Shown here: positions 7,812 through 40,548 of the stretch, piece by piece
Numbering within the stretch: position 1 is the first letter of the stretch
How the letters are laid out: each line of letters starts with the position of its first letter
DNA from: an uncultured Pseudomonadales bacterium
GTDB taxonomy: Bacteria; Patescibacteriota; Microgenomatia; UBA1400; Chazhemtobacteraceae
Length of the DNA stretch: 64,000 bases
Assembly (NCBI GenBank): GCA_964618725.1
Contig: CAZUBK010000004.1
Location: 79,485 to 143,484, forward strand
Direction of reading: 5' to 3'
Notes under the pieces: generated by a model
Seen by the model: the letters and a program-made list of their open reading frames with translations, nothing else
What the model was told of the DNA's origin: nothing
The model's database searches: none
Made by a program: the position numbers and the translations under genes

Positions 7812-8027
7812 ATGTCCAATAGAAAAGATCTCGATCTAAGTAACCTCCCCGACCTCCTCACCGTCCGTGAAGTCGCCGACATCCTTCGAGTCTCCATTCT
7901 CACCATCAAGCGCTGGGGCAAACGAGGCAAACTACCTGCCATCAGAATCAACTCCCGGGGTGACCGCCGCTATCGCAAGGAACAAGTTCTCTATCTTCTC
8001 GGTATTGACCCCAATATGCAGAGGTAA
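7812..8027 (+). CDS. excisionase/MerR-like helix-turn-helix DNA-binding protein (71 aa)
   Basis: LLTVREVADILRVSILTIKRWGKRGKLPAIRINSRGDRRYRKEQV is paralogous to the N-terminus of the 2460-aa protein at 24704. Confidence 0.6.
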   Translation: MSNRKDLDLSNLPDLLTVREVADILRVSILTIKRWGKRGKLPAIRINSRGDRRYRKEQVLYLLGIDPNMQR

Positions 8028-21392: not shown

Positions 21393-22220
21393 CTAAAGTA
21401 CTAGAATCAAATAAGCCAGCCCCAGTCCTATCGCCCCAACTCCTAGTGTCAATAATACTTGTACTACCACTGCCATTTGGATCCTCGCCCCCGCCAACGG
21501 ATTCCTCCCTATTGCCTCTACTCCTGCTTTGGCTACTCGACCAAAGTATATAAATCCAACTACAAACGACACAACCACTATCACCGCTGCCGCTAAGTAA
21601 CGTAATGCGGACAACGGATCCAAAAACGGAACACTCAAACCCTCTCTTAATGTCTCAAATAGATTCTCTCCGATACTCTGTAAATTCAAACTAGGATGCA
21701 CTTTTATCGACACCTCTATTTGCCCCACTTGGTTAGGATCACCACTCTCCCATCCTTCCAGTGCCGTCCCCAAGACAAATCCGTTCTTAACCGCCTTCAC
21801 TCCGATTCCCGGCGTTGTTGAGCTAGTAACTAGATCTCCCTGAACGATTGCTCCTCTGGAAGCATTCACCCGTACCACCGCCCTTCCAGAGGTAATGACT
21901 GAAAACGAATTAGGTATGTTGGTCGCTACAATTGCCGCCGCCGGGCTCGCTACGACTACTCCAAACATCTCCACCTGAAACTCTTGGTTACACAAAACAT
22001 ACTCGTCTCCCGCGTTACAAATGACACTACCAAGTGGCACTTCCCCCTCCGTAACAGTTACCGGTATTGCTACCCCCAAGTCAATTGACTGAGCCAGGAC
22101 TTGTCCAGAAGATCCCATCATCAATAAAAACATCAAAACCAAGAAAAAGAAATTCTTCATTACTTTCAATGTAACAAATTTCTCCAATTTAGAGATATCT
22201 AAAAAAACCCTTGTATTCAC
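21393..22220 (-). CDS. hypothetical secreted/membrane protein
   Basis: N-terminal signal/TM segment. The C-terminus has a two-helix hairpin ...VAKAGVEAIGRNPLAGARIQMAVVVQVLLTLGVGAIGLGLAYLILVL. Confidence 0.5.
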   Translation of the reverse strand: MNTRVFLDISKLEKFVTLKVMKNFFFLVLMFLLMMGSSGQVLAQSIDLGVAIPVTVTEGEVPLGSVICNAGDEYVLCNQEFQVEMFGVVVASPAAAIVATNIPNSFSVITSGRAVVRVNASRGAIVQGDLVTSSTTPGIGVKAVKNGFVLGTALEGWESGDPNQVGQIEVSIKVHPSLNLQSIGENLFETLREGLSVPFLDPLSALRYLAAAVIVVVSFVVGFIYFGRVAKAGVEAIGRNPLAGARIQMAVVVQVLLTLGVGAIGLGLAYLILVL

Positions 22221-24229
22221 TTCCTAAGAATGCCACAATCAACCCCATGTCCGCCCAACAACAAACCAAAGCCTTTGATACCCTTTCCTTAATCAGTCTT
22301 TTTGCCATCGTCTTCCTCCTACCTCTTATCTTCCTCCCCTCCTTTGTCAACTCGCATATTACCGGCAAGCTGACCCTTCTTGGTATCGGCCTTACCCTCA
22401 TTCTCGCTTCCAAAATCGCCAAGACCCTAATTAACAGAAGGCTTGAGATCACTTTAAGCCACTTTGACTTGCCTATTTTCTTTTTTGCCCTCATATACAT
22501 AGTAGTTACCTTCCTCCGCACTCCCAATAAGATGGAAGCTTTCTTCCTCCCCGGCACCACCAGCTTCGTCATCGCCGGCACCATCCTCTACTTCAGCCTC
22601 ACCCAGCTTTCGGCAAAGCTTAGACAGACCGTCCTTACCACCCTGATTCTCTCGGGAATCCTCGTCAACTTTATTTTCACCCTTTCCCATACCGGCGTCT
22701 TTGCCAAACTAAACGTCTTCCCTGCCTTTCTTAACACCAGTTTCACCACTTTCGACGGTGTTTTGGCCCAGACTATTTTCACCATTACCCTCCTCCTCAT
22801 TCTACTTAGCCAATTAGCCAGCAAACCCAAAAACCCAACCAAAGGTTTCTTCCTTGTTTCTCTAGTTCTTCTCACTATTGGCAGTTTCTTCTCCGTCAAC
22901 AGCCTTCTTCCGGGCAAAACACTCTCACCCCAACTTCTTGGCTTCAAGGACTCCTGGGTCATCATGGTCGACAGCATCAAAGAAAAGCCCTTCCTCGGCA
23001 GCGGCCCGGGCAACTTCGTCAGCGCCTTTGCCCGCTTCAAGCCCCTCGACATCAACAACACCGATCAATGGAACACCCTTCATGCCACCTCCCGCAATCT
23101 ATATTTCACCATTGCTACCGAAACCGGACTACTTGGAGTCCTCCTTATTATCATCTTCCTCCTCTACTGGATCAAAGTCTTAAGAACTACCTCAAACAAT
23201 CTCCCACAGGGATCTTCGATCTACTTAGCCTGTCTCTTCCTTCTCTTGGCTCTTGTCTTTTTCCCAACCTCCAGTAGTCTCCTTGTCATTCTCTTCCTTC
23301 TCACTGGACTAGCTTCACCAGCCAAAAAACACTTGAAACTAGAAAACAAAATCGTCCTCCTGGGTACCACTCTTCCGCTTATTATCGCTTTGGCAGCCTT
23401 CGTCTTCTTTGGCGGTTCAGCCCTTGCCGCTGAAAACCATTACAAAAATGCCCTAAGCAGCCCCAATGCCCAGTATGTCTTTGAAGAGCTAAGAAAGGCG
23501 ATTAAGGCAAGCCCCTATGTCGACCGCTACCACCTCACCTTCTCTCAAGTTAACATCAACCTAGCCGCCAATCTCTTCAAAAAAGGCCAGTTGAGCGAAG
23601 ACGAACAAAAATCCCTCAACCAATTGATCGACCAAGGCATCAACCAAGCCAAGATCTCAGTCAATTTGAATCCGCAAAGAGCCAGCAACTGGGAAATCCT
23701 AGCTAACATCTACCAATCCCTTACCCGCATTGCCAAGGGTGCCGACGAATTTGCCTACACCGCCTATCAGCAGGCCATCACCCTCCATCCCTACAACCCT
23801 ATCCCCCGTCTTTCCCTTGGAGGCCTCCTATATACCCAAGGTCGTTTCCAAGACGCTGTACGGGTCTTAGAAATGGCCGCCCTCACCAAACCAGACCACG
23901 CAAATATCCGTTACAACCTGAGCCTTAGCTACCGCGAAGCCAATCAAGTCGACCAAGCCATCGAACAACTAAACACTCTCCTCACTCTAATTGAGAAGGA
24001 CTCAAAAGACTACGAACTAGTTAAGGCCCTTCTTGATCAACTTGCGTCACGCAAAAAATCAGAAGCCCCCTCCGGTGAGGAGTTGACCGCTCCAGTAGCC
24101 CCTCCCAAACGACCCATCACTCCCCCTCTAGAACTTCCCGATACTTCCGCTCCACCAGAGAATCCTCTCCCCGAAGCGACACCCACTCCCACTTCGACAG
24201 AGAATCCTACCCCAACACCCTCCATATAA
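22211..24229 (+). CDS. O-antigen ligase (Wzy_C) family membrane protein with C-terminal TPR repeats
   Basis: Polytopic. ...FLGSGPGNFVSAFARFKPLDINNTDQWNTLHATSRNLYFTIATETGLLGVLL... matches the ligase loop. TPR-like repeats and a Pro-rich tail follow. Confidence 0.7.
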   Translation: MYSLPKNATINPMSAQQQTKAFDTLSLISLFAIVFLLPLIFLPSFVNSHITGKLTLLGIGLTLILASKIAKTLINRRLEITLSHFDLPIFFFALIYIVVTFLRTPNKMEAFFLPGTTSFVIAGTILYFSLTQLSAKLRQTVLTTLILSGILVNFIFTLSHTGVFAKLNVFPAFLNTSFTTFDGVLAQTIFTITLLLILLSQLASKPKNPTKGFFLVSLVLLTIGSFFSVNSLLPGKTLSPQLLGFKDSWVIMVDSIKEKPFLGSGPGNFVSAFARFKPLDINNTDQWNTLHATSRNLYFTIATETGLLGVLLIIIFLLYWIKVLRTTSNNLPQGSSIYLACLFLLLALVFFPTSSSLLVILFLLTGLASPAKKHLKLENKIVLLGTTLPLIIALAAFVFFGGSALAAENHYKNALSSPNAQYVFEELRKAIKASPYVDRYHLTFSQVNINLAANLFKKGQLSEDEQKSLNQLIDQGINQAKISVNLNPQRASNWEILANIYQSLTRIAKGADEFAYTAYQQAITLHPYNPIPRLSLGGLLYTQGRFQDAVRVLEMAALTKPDHANIRYNLSLSYREANQVDQAIEQLNTLLTLIEKDSKDYELVKALLDQLASRKKSEAPSGEELTAPVAPPKRPITPPLELPDTSAPPENPLPEATPTPTSTENPTPTPSI

Positions 24230-24353: not shown

Positions 24354-24497
24354 AAGTTCTAGATACCTGTAAACAAAAACATTACGCAGACAGAAAAAGC
24401 CGGTTTCGAAACGAAGTGAAGAATTTTTCTAGTCGAGTAAGAGACTGGCCGAGTCGCTGGACGAGGAACATGTCGTTTTTTGTGACAGGTATTTGGA
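24354..24497 (+). repeat. ~145-bp dispersed repeat, copy 1
   Basis: About 85% identical to 39584..39727. Both copies begin GTTCTAGAT and end ATATTTrGAAyA, which are imperfect terminal inverted repeats. Confidence 0.6.
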
Positions 24498-24703
24498 ATA
24501 TCAGAAGTGCGAAAGTTGCACTAGATATTTCACTTCCTCCATTCTTCCCTCCAGTGTTCGCGTCATCAATCCATTCCCACTTTTACCTGTTGACTTCACC
24601 CACAAAATCCTTCATAAATTAATACTAGATAAAGTTGTACATTTAGCCTCAAAAAATATCTAAATTTTATATACAACTTTTCTCCAAAGACAAAACTGCC
24701 CAA

Positions 24704-27700
24704 ATGTCCGCCCAAAAACATACCCAAACTAGCGAAAATCAAACTCTCACCCTTACTCAAGCGGCGCAAATCCTGGACGTCAACATGGCCACCGTCCGCC
24801 GCTGGACTAACAATGGCAAACTCCCTTCTTTCCGTACTCCCGGAGGCCATCGTCGCCTCCACCAGGCCGATGTCGAAAAAATCGCCCTCCAAAAACAGCG
24901 CCGCCAACTTCTCAAGCAACAAGCCCTGGCCGATGCCATCCAAATCCAACAACTCGCTCTTCCTAAAACCCCCCTCAAACCAATCTCAAGTCTGCTCACT
25001 GAACCCTCCCTGAAAGTCATCGACTCTGACCCCCTCAACATTCCGCAAGCCGAAGGTCCCCGTGGGATCCCGTTAGGGATAGACAACAAATCCAAGTCTT
25101 CCTTTCGTTCCTTTCTCACCCTCGCTTTGATCCTTGCTACTCTTCTTGTTTCCTTCAAGGGAGTCAAAGCCTTTAGAGACACCATTGCCTACGAAACCCT
25201 CTACAACACTCTCCCCTTCTTGTCCCGTTTTACGGGATCCCCTCTCTCTCCTCTTACTCAAAACAAAATCACAGACAAATTAAAGGGTTCCGTCCTCCAA
25301 GCCACCGATACTGTCGAGGAACTAATCTTTGAAGTCAATATCCCCACGAATATTGATAATGACCTCAATGTCAGTGGTGATCTCACCGTCGATGGAGACC
25401 TCATCACTAATGGCAATGTTGCTTTTGACAGTATCTCTGCCGATACCGCAGACTTTGGTTCTGCCGACATCACCACTCTTAGTATCGGTGGTACTACTCT
25501 TACCTCCACTGCTACGGAACTAAACTACCTCGATGGCCTGACTCTCGCCGCTGGAGGTATTGCCTACTCTACCTCTACCGGTCTTCAGATCTCCGCTGCC
25601 GGCACCAGTAGCCAGGTTCTGACCAGCAACGGTAGCGGTGCCCCCACATGGAAGAGCGTTTCCAGTATCCAATCTACCGACGCCTCAACGCTGGACAGTC
25701 TTGACTCCACCGCCTTCCTGCGTAGTAACGCCGATGATACTTACGACTCCGGTAACACCTTAACCGTCGCCGGTGCTCTCGCAGTTTCTGGTTCCCTGAC
25801 CTCCACCGGAGACGTCAGCATCTCTGACACCAATATTGCCCTCAATGGCGCCACCACCACCTTTACCACCACCGGAGACTTAACTCTTGCTGTCGGGGGG
25901 TCCGACATCCTCTCAACTTCTCGAATGACTTTGGGCTCTGCCACTGCCGGAACTGCCCAACTTCTGATCGACGGCAACGCCGATGTCATCCAACTTCAAA
26001 TCCAAGGACACTCTACCCAAACCGCAAGCACCTTCGTCATTGAACAGTCCGATGGTACGGATGTGCTTGCGGTAGGCAACACCGGGGTCCTGACGCTCAC
26101 CAACAGCGGCACCACCAACACCACCTTCAACCTCTCCAGTTCCGGAGACTTCATCATTCAGGACAACGGCACCGCCTTCATCACCTTTAACAGCAGTGGC
26201 CAGGTCGTGGGAAGCGATACCCTTCTTTTCAATCTCTCCGCTGCCACCCATAATTCCACCACTCCCGAAGGTATCATTCTCCCTCAAGCCACTTCCTTTA
26301 CCTCTCCCTCTTCCGGAGAAGGTTACATTGCCTGGGACTCTGATGACAACAAGTTGATGATGTATACAGGTAGCGCCTGGGTTGACGTCGCTGCTGCTGG
26401 AGGATCACTCTGGACTGACGGAGGAACGACCACCTACCTCACCGCTACCACCGACGATCTCGCCGTTGGCGGCACCGACTCGGAAAGCAACCTCTTCTTT
26501 GATGAGTCCGCCTCCGCCCTCTCTCTTAACCCCTATGGCACTTCTGCCGGTAATACTGGTGAATTAAGGTTTGAAGAGTTAGAAGCCAACGGTGACTCCT
26601 ACACTGGATTCAAAAGTCCCGATTCGCTAGCCGCCAATGTCGTCTACACTCTCCCTTCTGCCGACGCTACTACCAGTAACCAAGTCCTCGCCTCCTCTGC
26701 CGCCGGCGTTCTCTCTTGGATTGACGTCTCTGCTGGTGCCGGCACTCTCTGGACCGATGGAGGTACCACTACCTACGTTACCTCTACCACCGACGATATC
26801 GCTATGGGAGGAACTACCGCCGAATCCCCTTTCTGGATGGACGTCTCTGCTTCCCTTCTTAATCTCAACCCCTACGGCACTTCTACCGGCAATACCGGTG
26901 CTTTTGTCTCCCAAGAACTCGAAGCCAATGGCGACTCCTACACTGGTTTCAAAGCTCCAGACTCTTTAGCCGCTTCTGTCGTCTACGCTCTTCCCCTTGC
27001 CGATGCCTCCTCTGCCAACCAAGTCCTTTCGAGTAACGCCTCTGGTACCCTCGCCTGGATTGACGTCACTGGCGGTGCTGGTGCTCCCTGGACTACTTCC
27101 ACCACCAATACATATCTCACTACCACCACCAACGACGTCATCGTCGGTGCTTCCACCCCCGTCTCCTCTGCCAAACTTAGTGTCGATGGTGATGACGACC
27201 AGATTCAACTTGTCGTCCAAGGTAATGCCACTCAAACCGTCGCCACCCAACTCTTCCTCGTCGAGACCTCTGCCGGATCAGATCTTTTTTCCGTTGATGT
27301 CAACGGCGACTTAGTTCTCTCTGGCGAACTCGACATCAACGGTACCGGTACCCACGACATCGCAGGAACATTAAACCTCTCCGGGACAACCTTAACTGCC
27401 AGTGGCGACCTCACCATCACCCCCGTTGGTGGAGACGTCATCCTGGGATCCTCTGTGGCGCTTACCGCTTCCAAAATTAACAAAGTCATCGTCGTCGACG
27501 GCACCACCTATGCCCAGACGTGTGCCGGCATCAATGCCGCCATTGATGCGCTGGGAGCTAGTGGAGGAGAGATATACCTCCCCGAAGCTACTTACACCTG
27601 TACCGAAACGATAACGGTGGATTACAACAACACCACCATACGGGGCGCGGGGAAAGGGAGTAAAATTGTCGCGTCCGCTTGGGGTAGCTGGGGGACGCCG

Positions 27701-30700
27701 GGGGATGTGATAACGACTGGGACCACCGACTACAATAGTTTCCGTGATTTTCAGATTGACGGAACGCTTTTGACGGCACAAGCCTATGATCTTCTCGATC
27801 TCCCCAACGGTTCCAACTACATCGTGATTGACGGACTCTACCTAAAAAATAGTGATCGATACGGGATAAACATCAATCCCGGCGGAGCCTTCGTCATGAT
27901 CACCAACAGTATCATCGAAGGGTCAGATAGCTATGGCATTGTGGCTGATAACACCTCGGCGTATACCAATATTGCCAATAACATCATCCGCACAAACGAT
28001 TATGGTATCGTCATCGCGGGTGATTTCGTCGACGTAAGTAACAACATTATCACCGGCAACACCACCGCCGGTATTTCCGCAACCGGTTGGGGCGAGGATG
28101 CGACGATTACCGGCAACACCTTTTTTTCCAACGGGACGTATGGGGTATATGTCAGCGGTACAGGCTTTGATACCAATAACAATGTCACCATTTCCGGTAA
28201 TGAATTTAAAACGCATACCAACGGCGTTTATCTAAATAACACCAAGCAGGTAGCAGTGGTCGGCAATAACATTTTCCAATACTCCACCCAAGCCGGGCAG
28301 TATGGCGTGTACATAACCGGTGCTTCTGCTGATCCGGCCAACAGCAATCTGATTTCCAATAACGTCATAACGGGCTATACCGATGCCGGGGATATAGGTA
28401 TCTACATCGTCAACAGTTATGCCAACAATAACATCCTTTCTTACAATAGCTTTTCCACCAACGAAACAAACATCACGGATAATGGTGTTAACACACAGAT
28501 CAGCAATGCTGACTCCGGTAATCTTAGTATCGGCGGTGCCGACTCCACCCCAGACACCACCCTTGAACTCTTCCGTGCTTCAGGTTCCGACTCCACTTTC
28601 AGTATGACCGACGGTGACGTCGCCCATGGAGTTACTACGCTTGCCAATACTGACGCCTTCTTCCACGCTGGCCCCATCTCCTCCACCGTTGGTGGTACTA
28701 GACTAACTTCTCTTGCCGATGCTGATGGCCAAGCCCTGGAACTAAGAGCAGTCCAAACTGCTCCTACTGATACCACCCCCGCCATTAAACTCGTCGGTGC
28801 CAAAGCCTCTGGAACTGGAGTAGTTGACCTTGATGCTGCAGAGACTGTCTTTCAGGTGGCAAATAACGACGACGCGGCAGCACTTACTGTCTTAGGATCC
28901 GGGTCAGTCGGGATCGGTGATACCACTCCAGACGCCGTTTTCGACGTCGATTCCACTTCAGCTACCGCCGTCATTTTTGGCGACGGCACCAGTAACTACT
29001 TTACCTTTGACGGTTCCACCGATGTTGGCGACACTTTGTTTACCTTCACCGGAGCCAGTTCGGGAATAACTTCCGGAAAAATACTTTCCGTAGTCGCCGA
29101 TACCATCACAACTGGCAATGCGTTAGATTTCTCGGTTGATGGCATCTCCACTGGAAATGGCATGTATTTGGAATCTACTTCAACCGCCCTCTCCTCAGGC
29201 AATATTGCCTCGTATTACTGGAATCCTGGGAGTGCCACTACCGCAACCGGCGACATTCTGCGGCTAGATGTAGGGAGCAATGGGACCATCGGAAATATTC
29301 TAAACGTGATGAACGGTGGTTCTTCAGTCTTTTCTGTATCACAATCCCAAATTACTAGTGCATTACCCCATCAGTTTACCGCCGCAGGAGATGTATCCAT
29401 CGCCTATGACTTGCAATTTACTAACCAGACTGCTTCCTACATAAAGTCGTATGCCCCGTTGTATATCGAAGCAGGAGAGACGTTTGAAAACAACGACTTA
29501 ACCTTGAGAACCTATGGAACTGGTGATGTGATTTTGGATTTCACCACTTCAACGGGAACCGGAAAGTTACAGATTGCCGCGCCTGATCCATCCATCGTTT
29601 TCGATACCGAAACAGCCACCGATACTGACTTTTGGATGGGGGTAGTTGAAGACGCGGGCGCAGATGATGACGACACCTTCCAGATTGGTGATGGCACCAC
29701 TCCTGGAACCAATCCCTGGTTAGTCTTAGATACCAGTGGTAACGTAGGTATTGGTCCAGACACCACCCCAGATTACAAGTTCGAGATCAATGTGGCCGCC
29801 AGCAGCGACTCAACCTTCGCCTTAGTGGACGGTGACGTCGCCCACGGTGTCACCACCCTCGTCAACACCGATGCCTTCTTCCACGCTGGCCCCATCTCCT
29901 CCACTGTTGGTGGTACTAGACTTACTTCTCTTGCTGACGCTGACGGTCAAGCATTTGAGATCAGTGCTGTTCAAACCGCTCCCACCGATACCACTCCTGC
30001 TATTAAACTAGTTGGTGCCAAAGCCTCTGGTACTGGAGTCGTTGACCTTGATGCCGCCGAAACTGTCTTTCAAGTGGCAAACAATAATGACACGGCAGGG
30101 ATTACCATGCTTGGTGATAGTTCTGTCGGTATTGGAACCGTCACACCCAGCTCCTTTGCTAATAAACTCGCAGTTATATACTCAGTTAGTGGCATCACCG
30201 GTGGTACCAGCGGCACTTTCCAAAATACTTTTACTCCCACGGCGAATACCGCCGGTAGCCCTATCGCTCTCAAAGCCGCCACCACAGTCAGCGGTGGATC
30301 AACTAACTACTCCTCGGCCAATACTGCTATACGGGCACAAGCAAGTAATGTGAATAACACAGGTTCATTAACCACCACCTATGGCGTATATTCCCAACAC
30401 GGAGCCCTTTCCGGAGGAACAACCGGATCTTCTGCCGCCTCTTATGGCGTTTACTCTGATACCGCCTGGAGCTCATCAGCTACATTGGCATCTGCCTATA
30501 ACTATGCCGCAGTTATTTCGGCCAACTCTGGCACCTTCACCAATACTTATGGATTCTATGCTGGTGACCTGACTTCTGGCACTCAAAGTAACACTCCTTT
30601 CTCTTTCTATGCTTCAGATACGGGTACATTCAATTATTTCGGTGGTCGTACTGGCATCGGCGACACCTCACCTCTTGGTATGCTCGAAGTCAGTAGCGCC

Positions 30701-32086
30701 TCTGTTGATACTTACGGCAAAGCCCTTGCCATCTTCAACCACGATGAGACCGAGGACTTGCTAACAGCCTCTGCCTCCAGTGTCACCAAGTTTGCTGTCA
30801 GTAGTACCGGTGCCCTGTACGTTGGTGACAACACCACCCTTGGTACCTCTACTGCCCTTTGTTGGGAATCGGTGACGCGTAATGGTGCCACCGTCTACCA
30901 GGTAGGTGACTGTACCGGTACCCCCGGAGACTATGCCGAAATGTATCCGGTGGAGAATGATATCACTTATGGAGACGTCGTGACGCTAGGAACTGAGAAT
31001 GTCGTCCAAACAGACGGACAGATTGTGAAGAGATTAGTTAAGAGTAGTCGAGAGTATGACAGCAGTGTCGTCGGTATTGTCAGCAACAACTACCACGACT
31101 TTACCTTAGCAGGGAGCGCCTCTCTTAACTCCTCCGACAACCCCATGCCAGTCGCTCTCAGTGGACGTGTTCCCGTTAAAGTCTCCACCTCCTCGGCTGA
31201 AATCCAAGCCGGTGATTTTTTGACTACTTCTACCGAGGCAGGTAAGGCGATGAAGGCAACAGTCAGTGGTTATGTCATTGGTAAGGCCCTGGAAGACTGG
31301 AGTCCTGGCCAAACCACGGTGATGGTATTTGTCAACAACACCTATTACTCAGGGATTGCTCTCAATGAGCAAGGACAAACAGGAGTAACTGCCAATTCAG
31401 ATACAGAAGGTACTATACCTTCCGATGAGCAAGTCCTTGCTAAAGATCTTCAAGACAATCAGTATGCTTCACAGTCCGCTGCACTCAAACAAGAGATTGA
31501 CACCTTAAGTTCCAAGGTAACTGAGTTGACCACAAACCTCGACTCCCTCACCTCTCTTGTCCTCAGTGCCTCCGACTCCGCACTCGTAAATCCTGAATCA
31601 TATATCTTAAATCTCAACGATGAAACTGCCACAGTTTCGTCGTTGATGGTCACAGACAAACTTCTCACTCAGGATCTTGGCATCACCGGCTCCCTCACCA
31701 GTGGCCTTCTCACAATCAACGGTCTCAACGGCGACATCCATACCCTCGCCGGCCCCTTACGTCTTCAATCCTCTCCCCTTGCTTCTTTAACAGAAGGTAT
31801 TGAAATCCTAAATGGCTACCTTACCATCGATACTAAAGGTAACCTAAACATCAACCAAGGACATATTAAAGGCAATGATACCTTCCGTGGCTCCATTACC
31901 CTACCCACAGGTAAAATCAAAGTCACTGTTCCTCAAGAGTGGGAGACCGTACCTACCTCCATTACCTTGACCCCAAGTTATCTCACCGTCACCGCCATAA
32001 CTAATATCACCACTGACGGCTTCACTATCGAAGTCCTGACCCCCTCTCTTAAAACAGAGAAGATATACTGGACCGCCATTTGGTAG
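24704..32086 (+). CDS. giant 2460-aa protein: N-terminal excisionase-type HTH, one TM helix, then a repetitive beta-helix surface domain
   Basis: N-terminus LTLTQAAQILDVNMATVRRWTNNGKLPSFRTPGGHRRL. TM helix FLTLALILATLLVSF. PbH1-like repeats NNIITGNTTAGIS...ISGNEF. Three ~113-aa tandem repeats and a ~340-bp internal duplication. C-terminal coiled-coil. Confidence 0.8.
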   Translation: MSAQKHTQTSENQTLTLTQAAQILDVNMATVRRWTNNGKLPSFRTPGGHRRLHQADVEKIALQKQRRQLLKQQALADAIQIQQLALPKTPLKPISSLLTEPSLKVIDSDPLNIPQAEGPRGIPLGIDNKSKSSFRSFLTLALILATLLVSFKGVKAFRDTIAYETLYNTLPFLSRFTGSPLSPLTQNKITDKLKGSVLQATDTVEELIFEVNIPTNIDNDLNVSGDLTVDGDLITNGNVAFDSISADTADFGSADITTLSIGGTTLTSTATELNYLDGLTLAAGGIAYSTSTGLQISAAGTSSQVLTSNGSGAPTWKSVSSIQSTDASTLDSLDSTAFLRSNADDTYDSGNTLTVAGALAVSGSLTSTGDVSISDTNIALNGATTTFTTTGDLTLAVGGSDILSTSRMTLGSATAGTAQLLIDGNADVIQLQIQGHSTQTASTFVIEQSDGTDVLAVGNTGVLTLTNSGTTNTTFNLSSSGDFIIQDNGTAFITFNSSGQVVGSDTLLFNLSAATHNSTTPEGIILPQATSFTSPSSGEGYIAWDSDDNKLMMYTGSAWVDVAAAGGSLWTDGGTTTYLTATTDDLAVGGTDSESNLFFDESASALSLNPYGTSAGNTGELRFEELEANGDSYTGFKSPDSLAANVVYTLPSADATTSNQVLASSAAGVLSWIDVSAGAGTLWTDGGTTTYVTSTTDDIAMGGTTAESPFWMDVSASLLNLNPYGTSTGNTGAFVSQELEANGDSYTGFKAPDSLAASVVYALPLADASSANQVLSSNASGTLAWIDVTGGAGAPWTTSTTNTYLTTTTNDVIVGASTPVSSAKLSVDGDDDQIQLVVQGNATQTVATQLFLVETSAGSDLFSVDVNGDLVLSGELDINGTGTHDIAGTLNLSGTTLTASGDLTITPVGGDVILGSSVALTASKINKVIVVDGTTYAQTCAGINAAIDALGASGGEIYLPEATYTCTETITVDYNNTTIRGAGKGSKIVASAWGSWGTPGDVITTGTTDYNSFRDFQIDGTLLTAQAYDLLDLPNGSNYIVIDGLYLKNSDRYGININPGGAFVMITNSIIEGSDSYGIVADNTSAYTNIANNIIRTNDYGIVIAGDFVDVSNNIITGNTTAGISATGWGEDATITGNTFFSNGTYGVYVSGTGFDTNNNVTISGNEFKTHTNGVYLNNTKQVAVVGNNIFQYSTQAGQYGVYITGASADPANSNLISNNVITGYTDAGDIGIYIVNSYANNNILSYNSFSTNETNITDNGVNTQISNADSGNLSIGGADSTPDTTLELFRASGSDSTFSMTDGDVAHGVTTLANTDAFFHAGPISSTVGGTRLTSLADADGQALELRAVQTAPTDTTPAIKLVGAKASGTGVVDLDAAETVFQVANNDDAAALTVLGSGSVGIGDTTPDAVFDVDSTSATAVIFGDGTSNYFTFDGSTDVGDTLFTFTGASSGITSGKILSVVADTITTGNALDFSVDGISTGNGMYLESTSTALSSGNIASYYWNPGSATTATGDILRLDVGSNGTIGNILNVMNGGSSVFSVSQSQITSALPHQFTAAGDVSIAYDLQFTNQTASYIKSYAPLYIEAGETFENNDLTLRTYGTGDVILDFTTSTGTGKLQIAAPDPSIVFDTETATDTDFWMGVVEDAGADDDDTFQIGDGTTPGTNPWLVLDTSGNVGIGPDTTPDYKFEINVAASSDSTFALVDGDVAHGVTTLVNTDAFFHAGPISSTVGGTRLTSLADADGQAFEISAVQTAPTDTTPAIKLVGAKASGTGVVDLDAAETVFQVANNNDTAGITMLGDSSVGIGTVTPSSFANKLAVIYSVSGITGGTSGTFQNTFTPTANTAGSPIALKAATTVSGGSTNYSSANTAIRAQASNVNNTGSLTTTYGVYSQHGALSGGTTGSSAASYGVYSDTAWSSSATLASAYNYAAVISANSGTFTNTYGFYAGDLTSGTQSNTPFSFYASDTGTFNYFGGRTGIGDTSPLGMLEVSSASVDTYGKALAIFNHDETEDLLTASASSVTKFAVSSTGALYVGDNTTLGTSTALCWESVTRNGATVYQVGDCTGTPGDYAEMYPVENDITYGDVVTLGTENVVQTDGQIVKRLVKSSREYDSSVVGIVSNNYHDFTLAGSASLNSSDNPMPVALSGRVPVKVSTSSAEIQAGDFLTTSTEAGKAMKATVSGYVIGKALEDWSPGQTTVMVFVNNTYYSGIALNEQGQTGVTANSDTEGTIPSDEQVLAKDLQDNQYASQSAALKQEIDTLSSKVTELTTNLDSLTSLVLSASDSALVNPESYILNLNDETATVSSLMVTDKLLTQDLGITGSLTSGLLTINGLNGDIHTLAGPLRLQSSPLASLTEGIEILNGYLTIDTKGNLNINQGHIKGNDTFRGSITLPTGKIKVTVPQEWETVPTSITLTPSYLTVTAITNITTDGFTIEVLTPSLKTEKIYWTAIW

Positions 32087-32128
32087 CATCGCTACCAAAT
32101 ACGATTTACGATTTAAGAATTAAGATTT

Positions 32129-32509
32129 ATGAACACAAAAATCAAAGACTTCACCGATCTGAAATCCTGGCAAGAAGCACATAAGCTAGTTCTTGACATA
32201 TACAAGGCGACCAGGTCTTTTCCCAAAGAAGAAACTTACTCACTAACCGACCAGATCCGCCGCGCAGCCGTATCAATTAGCAGTAATATCGCTGAAGGAT
32301 TCGGCAGACAAACATACAAAGAAAAAGTCCAGTTTTACTATCTAGCCCAGGGGTCACTTGTCGAGGTCAAAAATCAACTGTTTATTGCCAAAGATGTTGG
32401 ATATCTAAACCCACAATCATTTGCCACGTTAATGAGACAGGCCAATATTGCTCACCAGCTATTGCAGGGCTTAATCACCAAATCAAAATCTTTTATTCGT
32501 AAATCATAA
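32129..32509 (+). CDS. four-helix-bundle protein (23S rRNA IVS protein / Avd-like family)
   Basis: ...SWQEAHKLVLDIYKATRSFPKEETYSLTDQIRRAAVSISSNIAEGFGRQ...YYLAQGSLVEVKNQL... is characteristic of the family. Confidence 0.8.
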   Translation: MNTKIKDFTDLKSWQEAHKLVLDIYKATRSFPKEETYSLTDQIRRAAVSISSNIAEGFGRQTYKEKVQFYYLAQGSLVEVKNQLFIAKDVGYLNPQSFATLMRQANIAHQLLQGLITKSKSFIRKS

Positions 32510-32514
32510 ATCTG

Positions 32515-35500
32515 ATGTCTAAAATCTTAAATCATAAATCTTATCTCATAAATCGTAGATCTCGGTTGCTGTTAAAACTTGGTCTTCTCTTTCTCTCTAT
32601 TACCCTCCCCATCGCCCTCCTCATCGCCCAAAACCCCAAAACCGTGGGAGCCGCCTGGTGGAACGGTGACTGGAAATACAGAAAAGTCATCCCCATCAGC
32701 TCTCATACCGCTGCCGAAACCAACGTCTACATCGCCATTACGGCTTATGACGCCTCCGACACAACCCGCTACCAGACCGACTGCGGCGACGTTCGCTTTA
32801 CCAAATACAGTGGCGAACTTTTGCCCTACACCGTCACTAGCTGCGGCGCTTCTACCACCTTTAACGTCCTCTTTGACACCTTCCCCGCTGGCGCCCAGGA
32901 TATCTATCTCTATTACGGCAACGGCAACGCCGCCAACGGTTTTCAAACCACCGCCTTTTCTACCCAAGCATCCGCCTATGTCATCGGCACTACCGGTTCT
33001 GAAGCCACCACCCCCGGTCCCGTTGCCTACTGGAAATTTGACGAAGGCCAGGGGCAGATCATAAATGATCAAACCACCCATAATAATGACGGTACCCTGG
33101 GCGCCGATTCTTCTTCCGCCTCCGACGACCCCACCTGGGTAGAAGCAGGCCGCTGTGTGAGCGGCAAGTGTTTGAGTTTTGACGGCAGCAATGACTTCGT
33201 AAATTATACTGGCTTGCCAACCCTTTTTTCCGATTGGGGAAGCACGTCGTTCTCCATGAGCACATGGTTTAAGACGATTGATAACGCCACTGATCGAGGT
33301 GTCTTTGGTTCATACGCTGCTAATGACATTGTTCAAATGAGAATAAATCCAAACTCAGATAATAAATTATCAGTCTACATGAGAGGATCCGCTAGTTGTG
33401 GTTGGGTCTCAAGTAATTCTGCAGTAGCAAATAACCAGTGGTACTACGCTACGATGGTGTACGATAGAACAAACTTGTATCTTTATGTTAATGGTCAGCT
33501 GCAAAATTCAACTGCATGCAACATAACGAGCGTTAATTTAAGTACATTTAGTGTGGGAAAGGTCACAGGAGCAGCTTCGTCGTTTACAGGCTTCATCGAC
33601 GAACCCAAAATTTATCCCTACGCCCGCACGGCAGCGCAGGTAAAACTGGATTACGATCAGGGCGCCCAGGCGGTGCTGGGCAGCACCAACACCGTCGGCG
33701 GCTCACCGGGATTTTTAAGCAATGGCTTGGTGGGGTACTGGAAACTCGACGAATCTTCCAGTACCGCCGCGGATTCTTCAGGCAATAGCAACAGTGGCAC
33801 TTGGAACGGCACTGCCGCTGCAGCTGCAGGTAAATTTGGTAATGGCATCTCCCTAGACGGAGACAGTGACTACGTCAGCATCGGAGACACAGAATTAATC
33901 AGCACAGCCTTCACCACCTCCGTCTGGTTCAAACCTGACAACGTCACCCAAACCGGCCCTATTATCAGCAAATACACTACTACAGGTGACAATAGGTCGT
34001 ACATCATCAGACTCGACTCTAATGATTATTATTTTGCCCTTTCCAGTGACGGCACCAGTGCTAGCGGCAAATTTGACCAGCTCACCGTCAGCAACGTAGT
34101 TAGCGCCAACGTCTGGCAGTTGGCTACCGTCACCTACGACGGCACCACCGTCAAAATGTTCCTCAATGGCAGTGAGGTTGGATCTTTTGCTCATACTGGC
34201 GGAGTTTATGCCAGCGGAACTGCTTCACTATTATTCGGTAACCAATCTACTAACTATTTTGACGGCACGCTCGACGAAACCCGCATCTACAATCGCGCCC
34301 TGTCCGCCGCCGAAGTCCGCCAGCTCTACTCCTGGGCGCCCGGGCCAATTGGCCGTTGGAACCTTGATGAGGGGACAGGCACCTCTGCTGCAGATGATAG
34401 TGGAAATAGCAATACTGGGACGATTACCGATCCAACCTGGATAAATGGAAAATTTGGCAAAGCCCTTTCTTTCAATGGAACAAGTGCAGAGGTAAACATC
34501 GGAGATACAGATAACACCTCTGGTATGCTGACCATTTCTGCATGGATCAAACCAAACACCGTCAGCGGTGGGTATGATGCCATCTATGGAGAAAGCGGCT
34601 TTGGATTTTACAACTTCAATGGCGTTCTAACCTTGTGGACATCAGCGTTTACTGGAGGCACGGGTACGCTTACTGTTAATCAATGGCAACACGTAGCCGC
34701 AACATTTGACTCCAGCACCGATTCCATTTATTTCTACATTAATGGGACTCGCGTGTACAGTAAAACAAACTGGACAGGCACGGTGCCCAACGATGCAAAC
34801 ACAGAATTTATTGGTTCCTATAACGGTAGTCAGGAATGGTTTTCAGGTTTAATCGACGACATGCGCATCTACAACTACGCCCGCACGGCCGGGCAAATAA
34901 TGGAAGACATGAATGCCGGGCATCCAGTGGGCGGCTCGCCAGAAGGCTCCCAGGTTATCTACTACAAATTTGATGAACAACAAGGCAGTACCGCCAATGA
35001 CACCGTTGGCAACCAAAACGGCACCGTTACCAGTGCCAGTTGGCTGACTAAAGCAAGCTGCAAAATTAACGGCTGTTTAAGCTTTGACGCCGCCGGCGAA
35101 GTCGTAACTATCGCCACCGCCAACGACAGTGTGGTTGATTTTAACAGTAGCGAAACCTTCTCCGGCTCCGCCTGGGTCTATGTCACTACTATGCCCGGCT
35201 CTGGGGAACAAGATGCCATCATTGCCAAATGGGACGATACCGGAAATCTTGCCGATTACAAACTCTACGTCGAAAACGACGACGCCGATACCACCGGCAA
35301 CTTTGAGGTCCAGATCTATGATGAATCCGCCAGCCAAGCCATCACCGCCAGCCAGGCCATTGACCAGGTAGCCGTCAACACCTGGTATCACGTTTCTTTC
35401 ACCTTTAACGGCGGCACAGCTGGCGCCGCCGGCGACCTCAAACTCTACGTTGGTGGCAAATATACCGCTCAAAACGCGGCCAATACTTCCTTCTTGGGGT

Positions 35501-37071
35501 TAGAGGACAAGGCCAGCGACTTTACTATTGGTGAATATGATACCGGTGATGTAGTTTCCACCAATACCGCCTTCACTGGCTATATCGACGACGTCAAAAT
35601 GTATAGCTCCGCCCTCACCGCTGACCAAATCGCCGTCGACATGAATGCCAATGCGGCGCTCAATTTTGGCACCACCGCCAACGCCGAAGCCGCGGATTTA
35701 AGTGACGGCGCCGGCAACGCACCAGTGGCCTACTGGAATATGGACGAAAAAACGGGCCAATCTACTAACGACACTTCTGGCAACAGCAATACCGGCACTT
35801 TAGGCGCTACCTCCTCCTCCGCCTCCGACGACCCCACCTGGGCTACTGGTAAATACGGAGCGGGGTTAAGTTTTGATGGGAGTAATGATTATGTGAATAT
35901 TACAACGCCTTCCATATACAATCAAACTCAATATACTATTTCAGCTTGGATAAAATTGACCAACACCACTGGTAGTCAAACGATTTATTCAGAAGGTCGT
36001 AATGCTAGTTTAGGTTTTCTCTGGTTTTATATAAATGCCGGAAAAATAGAACTTCGTGATAATGATGGGACTAATTATAACCAGTACGATGGTAGCACTA
36101 CTCTCTCCACAGGTGTCTGGCACCATGTTTTGGTAACTAGAAATGGCAATACCGCAGCAAATATTTATCTGAACGGTAAACTTGAAACGTTAAGCGTAAA
36201 TTCAACTTTGGGTAGCGGAACTCTGCCCACGTTAACACTGGCTTCTGTTGGTAGCTTGTTACGTAGTACTAATGCCTCATTTTTTAACGGTTCTATAGAC
36301 GACGTCCGCATCTACAACTACGCCCGCACGGCGGCGCAGGTGGCCTACGATTACAATCGCGGCGCGCCGGTGGGCTGGTGGAAGCTGGACGAGTGCCAGG
36401 GGACGGTGGCTAATGACGCGAGTGGGAATGGCAACCACGGCACCATCACCATCGGCGCTTCGGGTGAAGACACTGTCGGCACCTGCCAAACCTCCTCCAC
36501 TGCCTGGGGCAGCGGGGCAACAGGAAAATATGGGGCGAGTTTGAGCTTTGACGGAACGGATGATTATGTGGATATCTCAACAACGGGGACCAACTATGCA
36601 CCCACGGACAAACCATTTTCTGTCTCTTCGTGGTTTAAGTCAGCTGCTTCTCCTACAGTATATGGCAGAATAGTAAACTTAAAATCCAATTCTTCTCCGT
36701 TTCATCTTATATATTCAACAGACACTAGTTATAATCTTGGATTTGGGGGTGATACCTGGGGAAAGACATGGAAAGTTCCTCTTCCCTCTTCCAACACATG
36801 GCACCATGTTGCAATAGCATATAATGGCAACGGGGTAACAACCGCCAGCAACTTCTTGGTCACAGTCGATGGATCAAGTCAAACTCTAACTAATGCTGGT
36901 AGTATTGGAAACGTATCAAACACTTCATTTATAGGAAAATATTCCGGCGCTGCGGCCAATGAGCATTTTGCTGGCCAGATCGACGACGTGCGCATCTACA
37001 ACTACGCCCTCTCTGCCGCCCAGGTGCGCAAACTCTTCAACGAAGGCGCCAGCGTGCGGTATGGCAATTAA
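32515..37071 (+). CDS. DUF2341 domain plus multiple LamG-like (concanavalin A-like lectin) repeat protein, 1518 aa
   Basis: N-terminal TM helix, WWNGDWKYRKVIPIS (DUF2341), then about 8 LamG_3-like units with the recurring ...WKLDE...G.....G...FDG..DYV...DE.RIYN.ALSAAEV pattern. Confidence 0.8.
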   Translation: MSKILNHKSYLINRRSRLLLKLGLLFLSITLPIALLIAQNPKTVGAAWWNGDWKYRKVIPISSHTAAETNVYIAITAYDASDTTRYQTDCGDVRFTKYSGELLPYTVTSCGASTTFNVLFDTFPAGAQDIYLYYGNGNAANGFQTTAFSTQASAYVIGTTGSEATTPGPVAYWKFDEGQGQIINDQTTHNNDGTLGADSSSASDDPTWVEAGRCVSGKCLSFDGSNDFVNYTGLPTLFSDWGSTSFSMSTWFKTIDNATDRGVFGSYAANDIVQMRINPNSDNKLSVYMRGSASCGWVSSNSAVANNQWYYATMVYDRTNLYLYVNGQLQNSTACNITSVNLSTFSVGKVTGAASSFTGFIDEPKIYPYARTAAQVKLDYDQGAQAVLGSTNTVGGSPGFLSNGLVGYWKLDESSSTAADSSGNSNSGTWNGTAAAAAGKFGNGISLDGDSDYVSIGDTELISTAFTTSVWFKPDNVTQTGPIISKYTTTGDNRSYIIRLDSNDYYFALSSDGTSASGKFDQLTVSNVVSANVWQLATVTYDGTTVKMFLNGSEVGSFAHTGGVYASGTASLLFGNQSTNYFDGTLDETRIYNRALSAAEVRQLYSWAPGPIGRWNLDEGTGTSAADDSGNSNTGTITDPTWINGKFGKALSFNGTSAEVNIGDTDNTSGMLTISAWIKPNTVSGGYDAIYGESGFGFYNFNGVLTLWTSAFTGGTGTLTVNQWQHVAATFDSSTDSIYFYINGTRVYSKTNWTGTVPNDANTEFIGSYNGSQEWFSGLIDDMRIYNYARTAGQIMEDMNAGHPVGGSPEGSQVIYYKFDEQQGSTANDTVGNQNGTVTSASWLTKASCKINGCLSFDAAGEVVTIATANDSVVDFNSSETFSGSAWVYVTTMPGSGEQDAIIAKWDDTGNLADYKLYVENDDADTTGNFEVQIYDESASQAITASQAIDQVAVNTWYHVSFTFNGGTAGAAGDLKLYVGGKYTAQNAANTSFLGLEDKASDFTIGEYDTGDVVSTNTAFTGYIDDVKMYSSALTADQIAVDMNANAALNFGTTANAEAADLSDGAGNAPVAYWNMDEKTGQSTNDTSGNSNTGTLGATSSSASDDPTWATGKYGAGLSFDGSNDYVNITTPSIYNQTQYTISAWIKLTNTTGSQTIYSEGRNASLGFLWFYINAGKIELRDNDGTNYNQYDGSTTLSTGVWHHVLVTRNGNTAANIYLNGKLETLSVNSTLGSGTLPTLTLASVGSLLRSTNASFFNGSIDDVRIYNYARTAAQVAYDYNRGAPVGWWKLDECQGTVANDASGNGNHGTITIGASGEDTVGTCQTSSTAWGSGATGKYGASLSFDGTDDYVDISTTGTNYAPTDKPFSVSSWFKSAASPTVYGRIVNLKSNSSPFHLIYSTDTSYNLGFGGDTWGKTWKVPLPSSNTWHHVAIAYNGNGVTTASNFLVTVDGSSQTLTNAGSIGNVSNTSFIGKYSGAAANEHFAGQIDDVRIYNYALSAAQVRKLFNEGASVRYGN

Positions 37072-39551: not shown

Positions 39552-39583
39552 GGATTGATCTTACTACGACTTTCGCGTATGGG

Positions 39584-39727
39584 TTCTAGATGTTTACAAA
39601 CAAAAACATTACGCAGATTAAGAAAAGCCGGTTCCTGAGTCAAACGAAGGATTTTTCTAATCGAGTTAGAGGCTGGCCGAGTCGCTGGACGAAGAACATG
39701 CCGTTTTTTGTAGTAAATATTTAGAAC
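39584..39727 (+). repeat. ~145-bp dispersed repeat, copy 2
   Basis: Aligns base-for-base with 24354..24497, including the shared core GGCTGGCCGAGTCGCTGGACGA...CGTTTTTTGT. Confidence 0.6.
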
Positions 39728-39739
39728 ACTGAAAAAAAC

Positions 39740-40548
39740 TTAAGTCACGTAAAACTTTCCGTCTCTTTCTGTCACTTCCCCTCTTAGTTGCAACATCGAC
39801 AACTCCACGCTTACCTCTCCGACTGATTTCTTCAATTTCATCGCCATCTCATCCATAGTTAGTGCCTCAATAGACAGTAGCTTGTAGAGCGTAGAGCGTG
39901 ATCCACCGTTTTTTCTACCCTCTACCTTCAACCTTCTAAGTTCTAGTGCTTCTAAAATGTCATTCGCGCTTGTCAGCATCTGCGCCTGCCCTTCTTTGAT
40001 TAAATTGTTTGTCCCAACACAAACCTTGGAGGTAATTGGTCCCGGCACCGCAAACAACTTCTTGCCAAATTTGAGTGCCAAATCCGCCGTAATCAAACTT
40101 CCGGATTTCTCCGCCGCCTCAATCACAATTGTTACCTTGCTCATCCTCGCTACAATCCTATTTCGCTGCGGAAACATCCATACTTGGCAGCCCCTTCATA
40201 CTCACTTATAATCAAGCCCTTTTTCTGTATTTCTGAATACAATTTTTGATCTTCAAAAGGGACCTTCCAATCAATCCCCCAGCCCAAAACAGCCACCGTC
40301 TTCCCACCACAGGAAAGCGCTATCTTATGCGCCTCTTGATCCACCCCATACATAAACCCCGAAACAATCGTTATTCCGACGTCACAAAGAGACGGAATAA
40401 TTTTTTCCAAAACCGTCTTTCCATAACTAGTCATCTTTCTACTCCCCACTACTGCCACACAATTTTCTAAATCCGCTTCCTCCAAAACCCCCTTGCGGTA
40501 AAGCTTCTTGACCTCAGGCTTAATATCCTCGAATAACCCTCCATTCAT
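39740..40548 (-). pseudogene. dprA: DprA/Smf DNA-processing protein split into two ORFs by a frameshift near 40150-40180
   Basis: The upstream ORF 40150..40548 carries the DprA Rossmann N-part. The downstream ORF 39740..40177 begins MFPQRNRIVARMSKV, the conserved DprA FPxRNRIIAGLS motif. The two frames overlap by 28 nt. Confidence 0.6.

Follow-up and report, generated by a model that had tools for sequence, protein, structure and literature searches.

The window analysed here, a 64-kb stretch of contig CAZUBK010000004.1, is chromosomal DNA of a Patescibacteria (candidate phyla radiation, CPR) organism and contains three consecutive open reading frames (ORFs) on the + strand: g1 (24704-32086, 2460 aa), g2 (32129-32509, 126 aa) and g3 (32515-37071, 1518 aa). 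An earlier note on this DNA had placed the three ORFs at these positions, where they are indeed present, and had taken them together as one surface apparatus. We consider it probable that the locus is composed of two distinct parts, namely a Patescibacteria surface module that includes g1 and g3 and, between these two genes, a cassette encoding an S23p protein and resembling the intervening sequences (IVS) of 23S rRNA. This cassette would be a selfish or domesticated insertion, neither a partner of the surface proteins nor a part of a diversity-generating retroelement (DGR). What is observed between g1 and g3 is an insert of about 460 nt (about 32100-32561), the core of which is g2 and the ends of which are inverted arrays of 7-nt units. 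The spacers measure 42 nt between g1 and g2 (32087-32128) and 5 nt between g2 and g3 (32510-32514); the close spacing described before is confirmed, with the exact values corrected from 43 and 6 nt. Considering the shared strand, these short gaps and the fact that no terminator-like site is seen in them, the single transcript already proposed for g1-g2-g3 is plausible.

The 5' arm of the cassette (32100-32132, + strand) is made of the tandem heptamers TACGATT TACGATT TAAGAAT TAAGATT TATGA, the start codon of g2 sitting in the last one. The 3' arm (32497-32561, + strand) is made of arrays of the complementary heptamer TAAATCN, which extend from the last codons of g2 through codons 1-16 of g3. 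Identity at lag 7 reaches 0.68 in the 5' arm and 0.66 in the 3' arm. The arms are complementary over 30-33 nt at 82-87% (inverted repeats I3-I5), and the best-pairing part of the 3' arm (32532-32561, corresponding to g3 codons 6-16) matches 32103-32132 over 30 nt at 87%. These two segments form a long-range stem in the predicted minimum free energy (MFE) fold of 32076-32580 (-114.7 kcal/mol, z -4.26), and the duplex energy of the two flanks, computed over +/-60 nt, corresponds to an arm-pairing z of -4.8. In addition, a perfect 10-bp hairpin without U-tract (ATTTGGTAGC/GCTACCAAAT, inverted repeat I14, 32078-32100, + strand) surrounds the stop codon of g1 and is also present in the MFE fold. 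A third heptamer array, of the GATTYAN type when read on the - strand (31584-31613), precedes the 5' arm by 519 nt and has the same orientation as the 3' arm. It lies inside g1 (aa 2294-2303, ESYILNLN), in a linker that is variable among homologues, and may be an alternative partner of the 5' arm or the footprint of an earlier element.

By homology, g2 is a member of the S23p family with an Avd-like fold and a distant relationship to Avd, the accessory protein of DGRs. It matches Pfam 23S_rRNA_IVP (PF05635) at 1e-38 (132 bits for a cut-off of 33.8) and TIGR02436 at 122 bits (cut-off 24), and the sole solved relative found by sequence is 2GSC (6.5e-19), a non-DGR S23p pentamer. A single-sequence AlphaFold2 (AF2) model (pLDDT 71) contains four helices and was compared by Foldseek with 2GSC (TM-score 0.76-0.85, 40% identity), 2RLD (0.72-0.83) and bAvd 4DWL (0.65-0.82, with 11-14% identity and E 0.03-0.08). 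The previous description of the middle gene as a four-helix-bundle (4HB) protein of 23S IVS/Avd-like type is thus well founded, and the domain calls made for g1, g2 and g3 likewise hold in Pfam and NCBIfam. The g2 protein is net basic (19 K+R against 11 D+E) and its family is under strong purifying selection (pN about 0.2 against pS 0.77-0.93). No second 4HB gene was found in the window by tblastn.

The IVS of Coxiella burnetii is a 428-nt element of 23S rRNA helix 45 with a 28-bp terminal stem (PMC4990558). Tandem heptamers (GACAGAT) precede its S23p start codon, it is excised by RNase III, and its origin is unknown (PMC4990558). Insertions in the rRNA genes of CPR bacteria have also been reported to carry ORFs of the 23S_rRNA_IVP family (bioRxiv 10.1101/2024.02.27.582315). 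With such rRNA IVS (Coxiella, but also Leptospira and CPR rRNA), the window cassette has in common the protein family (PF05635/TIGR02436), a size of about 430-460 nt, terminal inverted repeats with a predicted stem of about 28-30 bp enclosing the ORF, heptamer repeats directly upstream that run into the start codon, and no canonical Shine-Dalgarno sequence. However, rRNA IVS are located in helix 45 or 25 of 23S rRNA, whereas this cassette separates two protein-coding genes within an operon, in a window without any rRNA. Moreover, the Coxiella ORF is decaying whereas that of g2 is intact and under purifying selection, and the 3' arm, unlike that of rRNA IVS, overlaps the start of the downstream gene. 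Since the protein family, size, stem and heptamers are present but the rRNA location is lacking, the element is named IVS-like only and is not classed as an rRNA IVS.

The g2 family is large, with 7,758 cluster representatives (50% identity) at E<=1e-10. The g2-centred sample gathers the best 80 of at least 455 g2 relatives, which are 54-76% identical to g2, and in most of these 80 the same design was found, with an ORF of about 125 aa and complementary heptamer arrays on both sides. Lag-7 identity is 0.48 upstream and 0.52 downstream of these genes, while random windows give 0.28; the flanks show another peak at lag 14. Arm-pairing z, scored for 81 relatives, has a median of -3.2 and falls below -2 in 53 of them; the corresponding values for 76 ordinary genes taken from the same loci are +0.10 and 4/76. 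The heptamer itself varies from one element to another (GATTTAY, GAATTTG, AAGTTAA, GAATGAA, TCAGAAT and others) while the arms of each element are still complementary, so that pairing, or a shared repeat unit, is what is conserved. An rRNA context was rejected for these genes, as no rRNA was detected (Rfam, gathering threshold) on 40 short contigs bearing g2 relatives.

The relatives are inserted in, or adjacent to, protein-coding operons of diverse functions. They separate the two BPD_transp_2 permeases (LivH/LivM) of a Liv-type transporter (L108 and four more loci) and the alpha and beta subunits of PFOR (L129, L133), and they also separate Rho from a LysM-M23 peptidase (L101), HlyD from an ABC ATPase (L168), a flippase from GT2 (L116) and Wzy_C from PMT_2 (L121). 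Others precede Obg (L152), follow ArgRS (L144) or reside within pilin/PrgI clusters of type IV secretion systems (L123, L142). Of the neighbours in this sample, 56 of 66 on the upstream side and 51 of 61 on the downstream side are read in the same direction as the 4HB gene, and the median distances to them are 36 and 42 nt, respectively. The design is not restricted to Patescibacteria-type contigs but is also seen in Cyanobacteria: AVA_RS28115, on plasmid C of Trichormus variabilis ATCC 29413, lies in a TrbI/VirB10 operon between (TCAGAAT)n and (TTCTGAC)n arms (z -6.5). On plasmid alpha of Nostoc sp. PCC 7120 (L169, 3776-4126), a 4HB gene has a downstream array only (CTTCTGC/CCTCTGC, six times) and is surrounded by transposase genes, two of them annotated simply as transposase and one as tnpA of the IS200/IS605 family. 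The heptamer arrays resemble the STRR heptanucleotide repeats of heterocystous cyanobacteria.

On this basis we put forward, tentatively, a broader proposal: S23p ORFs with inverted heptamer arms may form a widespread and apparently undescribed class of operon-resident elements, "free-living" counterparts of IVS and relatives of Avd. In such elements the repeat arms, in the form of RNA or DNA, would be recognised by the element's own basic 4HB pentamer, and the element would either act as an autonomous mRNA-processing or uncoupling module or move independently of a transposase with a preference for junctions between giant surface genes. In the window, the arms could pair within the g1-g2-g3 transcript and yield an RNase III-type substrate, or could occlude the g2 start and the 5' end of g3. 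Because g3 codons 6-16 contain the pairing part of the 3' arm, formation or cleavage of the stem would affect g3 expression, and pairing might therefore uncouple or modulate g3 relative to g1. The basic and putatively pentameric g2 protein would bind nucleic acid, possibly the repeat arms themselves. A literature search revealed no earlier account of cassettes of this kind within operons of protein-coding genes, although the searchable literature is incomplete and this is absence of evidence only. The nature of IVS and the function of S23p have been open since about 1990, and work so far has concerned rRNA copies, in which the ORF often looks dead. The occurrence of the same design in many protein-coding operons, under purifying selection and in cultured, tractable cyanobacteria, makes arm binding, RNase III processing and effects on neighbouring genes testable.

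Comparison of orthologous loci revealed both filled and empty g1-g3 junctions, at protein-level divergence. At L004, L008, L011 and L026, a g1-like gene meets the DUF2341-LamG gene by an overlap or with 3-13 nt between them, and g2 is missing. A heptamer scar was sought at these empty junctions, where L004 shows a faint period of 7 (0.39) and L008, L011 and L026 none. In contrast, the junction is filled at L015 by a canonical 4HB gene, with the same 5-nt gap as in the window, and at L006/7 by another 4HB subtype (TIGR02436 with the 4helix_suffix TIGR04258). The conservation of the three genes, which the earlier note had left to be assessed, is therefore partial, the adjacency of g1 and g3 being retained in six loci and g2 being facultative. 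4HB genes are also present after the LamG gene (L027, L033, L050) or before it (L016, L039, L043, L071).

Further arrangements of 4HB genes were observed at two of the compared loci. At L006 (GCA_040960375.1, 3502-4180 and 8833-10252), the junction gene has direct, not inverted, 9-mer arrays (ATAAGTCCY) on either side, and 1 kb downstream of the LamG gene this locus carries a 96-aa GIY-YIG ORF together with a 286-aa protein containing another 4HB domain. At L094 (1240-2707), two 4HB cassettes occur within 1.5 kb between two LamG-type genes, which shows that a single cluster of surface-protein genes can collect several cassettes.

The genes that surround the cassette constitute a recurrent but non-obligatory surface module of Patescibacteria, composed of a Wzy_C-TPR protein, a giant with a helix-turn-helix (HTH) domain and a transmembrane helix, and a DUF2341-LamG giant, usually with a divergently oriented 275-aa membrane protein. 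A g1-like gene immediately precedes the DUF2341-LamG gene at L004, L006/7, L008, L011, L015 and L026 but not at L012, L017, L018, L020 and L024, and the two are adjacent in roughly half of the loci that are informative. Among g1 homologues, the closest one (L002/L003) adjoins LeuRS-ComEA-ComEC as in the window, without a LamG gene. Homologues of the Wzy_C-TPR protein accompany g1-like or LamG genes at L004, L008, L013, L014, L015, L027, L044, L046, L095 and L102. In the window, this protein (22211-24229, 672 aa), encoded directly upstream of g1 on the + strand, is polytopic, with about 10 transmembrane helices predicted by hydropathy (used for all topology calls on g1, g3 and the 275-aa and 672-aa proteins), a C-terminal TPR region (TPR_19, 1.6e-12) and a weak O-antigen-ligase-like Wzy_C match (0.0033, 17.6 bits for a cut-off of 31.7). 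Its L008 homologue, which has PF04932 (Wzy_C) on record, aligns to it over the full length (6e-118). The 275-aa protein (21393-22220, - strand) has a signal-like N-terminus and two C-terminal hydrophobic helices, without match in Pfam or NCBIfam. It shares a beta module of about 90 aa with g1 (aa about 2143-2205), and its homologues occupy the same divergent position beside g1-like genes at L004, L005 and L008.

For g1 and g3, the surface and adhesion part of the former interpretation is reasonable given their single N-terminal anchors, lectin and beta-helix folds, the literature on DUF2341 and their recurrent adjacency; its extension to a three-gene unit was not supported. Both proteins would be displayed on the cell surface and adhere to host cells or glycans, and the Wzy_C-TPR protein might glycosylate or process these Ser/Thr-rich proteins or ligate glycans to them. 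The module adds a conserved neighbourhood to the candidate host-attachment systems of ultrasmall episymbiotic bacteria, and one of its members is an unusual giant whose cytoplasmic tail is of DNA-binding type.

The giant g1 was characterised by Pfam, NCBIfam, PDB search and hydropathy, and is predicted to be anchored in type II orientation. Its sole hydrophobic helix (aa 136-154, nt 25109-25165) follows a net-basic tail of 132 aa in which an HTH of the HTH_17/MerR/BldC type was identified (aa 15-61, nt 24746-24886, Pfam HTH_17 9.5e-11). The N-terminal 60 aa resemble BldC, the MerR-like developmental regulator of Streptomyces (6AMK/6AMA), and excisionase-type HTH_17 (6AMK at 3.6e-6; NF033787 at 9e-15). 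As the NF033787 score (54.3 bits) does not reach the cut-off of 77, g1 was not assigned to the BldC subfamily. Moreover, BldC is a free protein of about 70 aa, whereas in g1 the domain is fused to the membrane helix and forms the cytoplasmic tail of a 2460-aa surface protein. This suggests a membrane-tethered DNA-binding function, similar in logic but not in family to ToxR/CadC, which could couple the state of the surface to transcription, for example by autoregulation. Small free-standing or short HTH_17/MerR-type proteins akin to this tail are encoded elsewhere in the window (7812-8027, + strand) and, beside g1-like genes, at L008 (16947-17777) and L005 (20-346).

The ectodomain of g1, of about 2300 aa and with 25% Ser/Thr, is itself modular. 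From the N- to the C-terminus it comprises three tandem 339-nt units (26372-27093), a right-handed beta-helix (Beta_helix/NosD, aa about 1028-1150, nt about 27785-28123, 6.6e-16 when this piece is scanned), a duplicated module of about 100 aa (28610-28909 and 29828-30127), a small beta module (30944-31363) with a weak match to phage cement proteins and phi29 head-fibre bases (Pfam 0.002-0.003, Foldseek E 3e-3), a long coiled coil (31424-31561) and, at the C-terminus, a conserved beta-sandwich that ends in YWTAIW. The combination of beta-helix, coiled coil and cement-like module suggests a trimeric fibre or spike. Homologues are few (19) and those with names are labelled "Patescibacteria group"; HTH_17 is fused to a protein of 1.5-4.3 kaa (thousand amino acids) in 11 of the 19. 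Autochaperone domains are also present in homologues, Peptidase_S74 in one and Peptidase_G2 in another. The latter, of 4304 aa (P0003), has phage-integrase SAM-like domains (PF13495, PF02899) in place of the HTH_17 tail, so that a cytoplasmic DNA-binding tail of changing family seems to be a conserved theme of g1-type giants.

By its sequence, g3 belongs to the DUF2341-LamG surface proteins of Patescibacteria, as deduced from Pfam, its repeat family and homology. Its N-terminus consists of a basic tail followed by a hydrophobic segment, either anchor or signal (aa 19-37, nt 32569-32625), which is the only transmembrane-like helix. It is followed by a DUF2341 domain (aa 89-147, nt 32779-32955) that begins with the conserved AAWW..W.YRK and scores 21.4 bits, just below the Pfam cut-off of 23.4, and by a LamG array (nt about 33020-37045, Laminin_G_3 3e-138); the ectodomain has 22% Ser/Thr. 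The array comprises six Laminin_G_3 stretches and six copies of the end motif G.IDD.RIYNYA (direct-repeat family D3), and hence six LamG domains; the array reported before is thus real while its count, about eight, was too high. The length of 1518 aa and the membrane anchor are in agreement with the homologues. More than 1100 matches of about 1500 aa were obtained, mostly from Microgenomates, of which more than 1000 bear PF10102 and the name "DUF2341 domain-containing protein"; Collier-, Davies-, Woese-, Roizman- and Levybacteria are among the named ones. Dozens of proteins of about 1500 aa with PF10102 and PF13385 cover 99-100% of g3 at 35-44% identity, and identity to hundreds of members of this family, which have the same N-terminal anchor, AAWW..W.YRK motif and LamG repeats and a presumed adhesin role in common with g3, is 35-55%. 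The family consensus agrees with the full-length start at 32515; an NCBI protein 100% identical to g3 (P0020) is annotated with 1304 aa, 86% of the ORF called here. Membership in the TafC family of fimbrial proteins (NF052521) was not retained, with 177 bits for a cut-off of 410 and the LamG repeats alone matching.

DUF2341 proteins have been noted among giant proteins of Patescibacteria (PMC11809585). In archaea, those of type IV pilus loci (MJ1470) were proposed as pilus-associated adhesins (PMC4858521), and transformation in M. maripaludis needs one DUF2341 gene (PMC10133366). For g3, an adhesin or pilus-tip role would be an analogy drawn from this literature. Indeed, g3 differs from the archaeal proteins in having no class III pilin-type signal, and no pilus genes were detected among the window ORFs scanned (about 46, including every long ORF, with Pfam), whether pilins, ATPase or TadC/PilC, as would be expected around a pilus-tip adhesin of the PilY1-like or archaeal DUF2341 type. 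Only DNA-uptake genes (ComEA, ComEC, DprA, ComM) are near, in a competence block with YraN, and this proximity is suggestive; it is not kept at L004 or L008.

Several observations weigh against the interpretation of the locus as a surface module carrying an IVS-like insertion, and some of them favour the alternative in which g2 would serve the surface proteins as a dedicated accessory (for instance as a cytoplasmic chaperone, as a factor for secretion or assembly, or as an RNA-binding protein regulating the very long mRNAs) and the three genes would form one functional unit. In the g3-centred sample (80 loci around g3 relatives, analysed by our own ORF and hidden Markov model (HMM) scans and by neighbourhood look-ups), 10 of 15 4HB genes lie within 200 nt of a giant or LamG gene and are co-oriented with it (expected 8.6%, p 4e-8), and 9 of 58 4HB genes of the g2-centred sample stand beside such genes. 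Such an excess could come from tolerance of insertions, from a preference for these targets or from a real functional benefit, for example the uncoupling of very long cistrons. The same g1-g3 junction is occupied in the window, at L015 and at L006, by 4HBs of differing subtype, and the tight co-oriented packing and the purifying selection on g2 would also fit a dedicated accessory. As to mobility, no filled/empty pair at the DNA level and no target-site duplication was found, and the copies of the g2 family are old, with saturated synonymous sites and no associated transposase. Sense and antisense arm duplex energies show no asymmetry, so an RNA stem is indistinguishable here from terminal inverted repeats of DNA, and an RNase III cut at the predicted stem would fall in g3 codons 6-16, which looks costly. 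On the side of the surface module, the Wzy_C identity of the 672-aa protein is weak, the fold match of the trimer module of g1 is weak too (E 3e-3), and the functions proposed for g1, g3 and the Wzy_C-TPR protein come from domain homology.

We nevertheless regard a dedicated accessory as unlikely. The junctions of L004, L008, L011 and L026 lack g2, its 54-76% identical relatives reside between LivH and LivM, PFOR subunits, HlyD and the ABC ATPase and other unrelated genes, and it carries inverted arms of its own. Neither do the 4HBs of surface contexts form a clade, since they do not cluster by identity (p 0.37), and the junction genes themselves differ, being canonical in the window and at L015 and of the 4helix_suffix type at L006. 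Tight spacing alone should not be read by annotators as evidence of a functional partnership.

It is less likely still that the block is a degraded prophage or a tail-fibre or tailspike cassette. The N-terminus of g1 matches excisionase families (TIGR01764, phrog_66), g3 matches phrog_8510, "virion structural protein" (1e-82), and Peptidase_S74 and Peptidase_G2 occur in g1 homologues. Furthermore, the beta-helix, coiled coil and cement-like C-terminal module of g1 have counterparts in phage tailspikes, head fibres and cement proteins (phi29 gp8.5/gp12, lambda gpD-like). Unlike these phage proteins, however, g1 is chromosomal and membrane-anchored, without virion genes, and its HTH is fused in frame to a transmembrane helix and an ectodomain in 11 homologues; g3 also has an N-terminal anchor. 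The flanks are housekeeping and competence genes, with an M16 peptidase and a PIN protein before the cluster and, on the opposite strand after it, YraN, ComM, DprA, ComEC, ComEA and LeuRS. No capsid, portal, terminase or integrase gene is present around the cluster, and the module is chromosomally conserved across many Patescibacteria.

We give even less credence to the idea that the heptamer arrays are incidental, AT-rich low-complexity sequence or ordinary intergenic repeats, with g2 an ordinary small gene and no cassette at all. It is true that the arms have an AT-rich composition and in part encode protein (g3 codons 1-16), that the third array lies within g1 and that 28 of the 81 relatives have no significant arm pairing within +/-60 nt. 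Yet the period of 7 and the complementarity are specific to 4HB flanks, being absent from control genes and empty junctions, and the arms remain complementary when the heptamer differs. A double-heptamer pattern has 12 matches in the 64 kb, for 0.86 expected, all of them in 31584-31613, 32103-32132 and 32497-32561, that is, at the cassette or 500 nt away. Finally, cyanobacteria and the Coxiella IVS (PMC4990558) show the same design.

The link between the middle gene and DGRs suggested before was not substantiated. DGRs are common in CPR bacteria, and g2 has with Avd (BPP-1 bAvd, 4DWL/8UB7) the fold, the small basic character and a homologous superfamily in common. PF05635 is the Pfam family most frequently found beside DGR reverse transcriptases (PMC10053308), and g2 matches PHROG 3206, "Avd protein of DGR" (8.4e-13), a homology at the superfamily level only. 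However, g2 remains well below the cut-offs of both curated Avd models (PF22296 bAvd, 23.9 against 40; NF033474 DivGenRetAVD, 26.5 against 80), and its closest solved relative is 2GSC. Pfam scans of the long ORFs confirmed that no reverse transcriptase domain is encoded in the window, and no neighbour pattern of reverse transcriptase size is shown by the 80 relatives. Direct repeats with a minimum length of 40 nt were searched over the whole window and their mismatch spectra examined, which yielded eight families, none of them a template/variable repeat pair and none with adenine-biased mismatches; all are intragenic domain duplications in g1 or g3 except the intergenic pair D4/D7. LamG is not known to serve as a variable-region scaffold. 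That g2 is an Avd-type accessory which, with a reverse transcriptase and template repeat located elsewhere in the genome or lost, diversifies the LamG protein is therefore the most improbable of the alternatives, and the DGR reading was rejected for this window. A PF05635 gene beside large surface proteins should not be annotated as evidence of a DGR.

Repeats D4 and D7 correspond to a structured element of 146 nt with two copies about 80% identical, one at 24355-24500 (+ strand), within the 474-nt spacer that precedes g1, and the other at 39582-39728 (+ strand) between ComM and DprA, antisense to them. The copies fold with z values of -4.7 and -3.7 and show compensatory differences in a 15-bp closing stem and in one inner stem. 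No match was found in Rfam and no copy in loci L001-L168, and the element may be a noncoding RNA, a leader or a miniature inverted-repeat transposable element. The two copies, 15 kb apart, were also considered as att sites of an island; this was rejected because the element is structured and the interval encloses the housekeeping genes YraN and ComM. A defence-system reading was likewise dropped, as PADLOC reported only the HTH (mad1) and one marginal match.

Beyond the cluster, DprA appears as two overlapping - strand ORFs (39740-40177 and 40150-40548), which may stem from a frameshift, from pseudogene formation or from an error of assembly. ComEC is split as well, with its competence domain and its Lactamase_B part in separate - strand ORFs (42090-42896 and 43627-44760). 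A 329-aa ORF without annotation (40629-41618, + strand) lies between DprA and the Lactamase_B ORF. The GC skew of the + strand is -0.3 to -0.4 across the 64 kb with a constant sign, and -0.1 to -0.2 inside g1-g3, the coding strands of which are thus C-rich.

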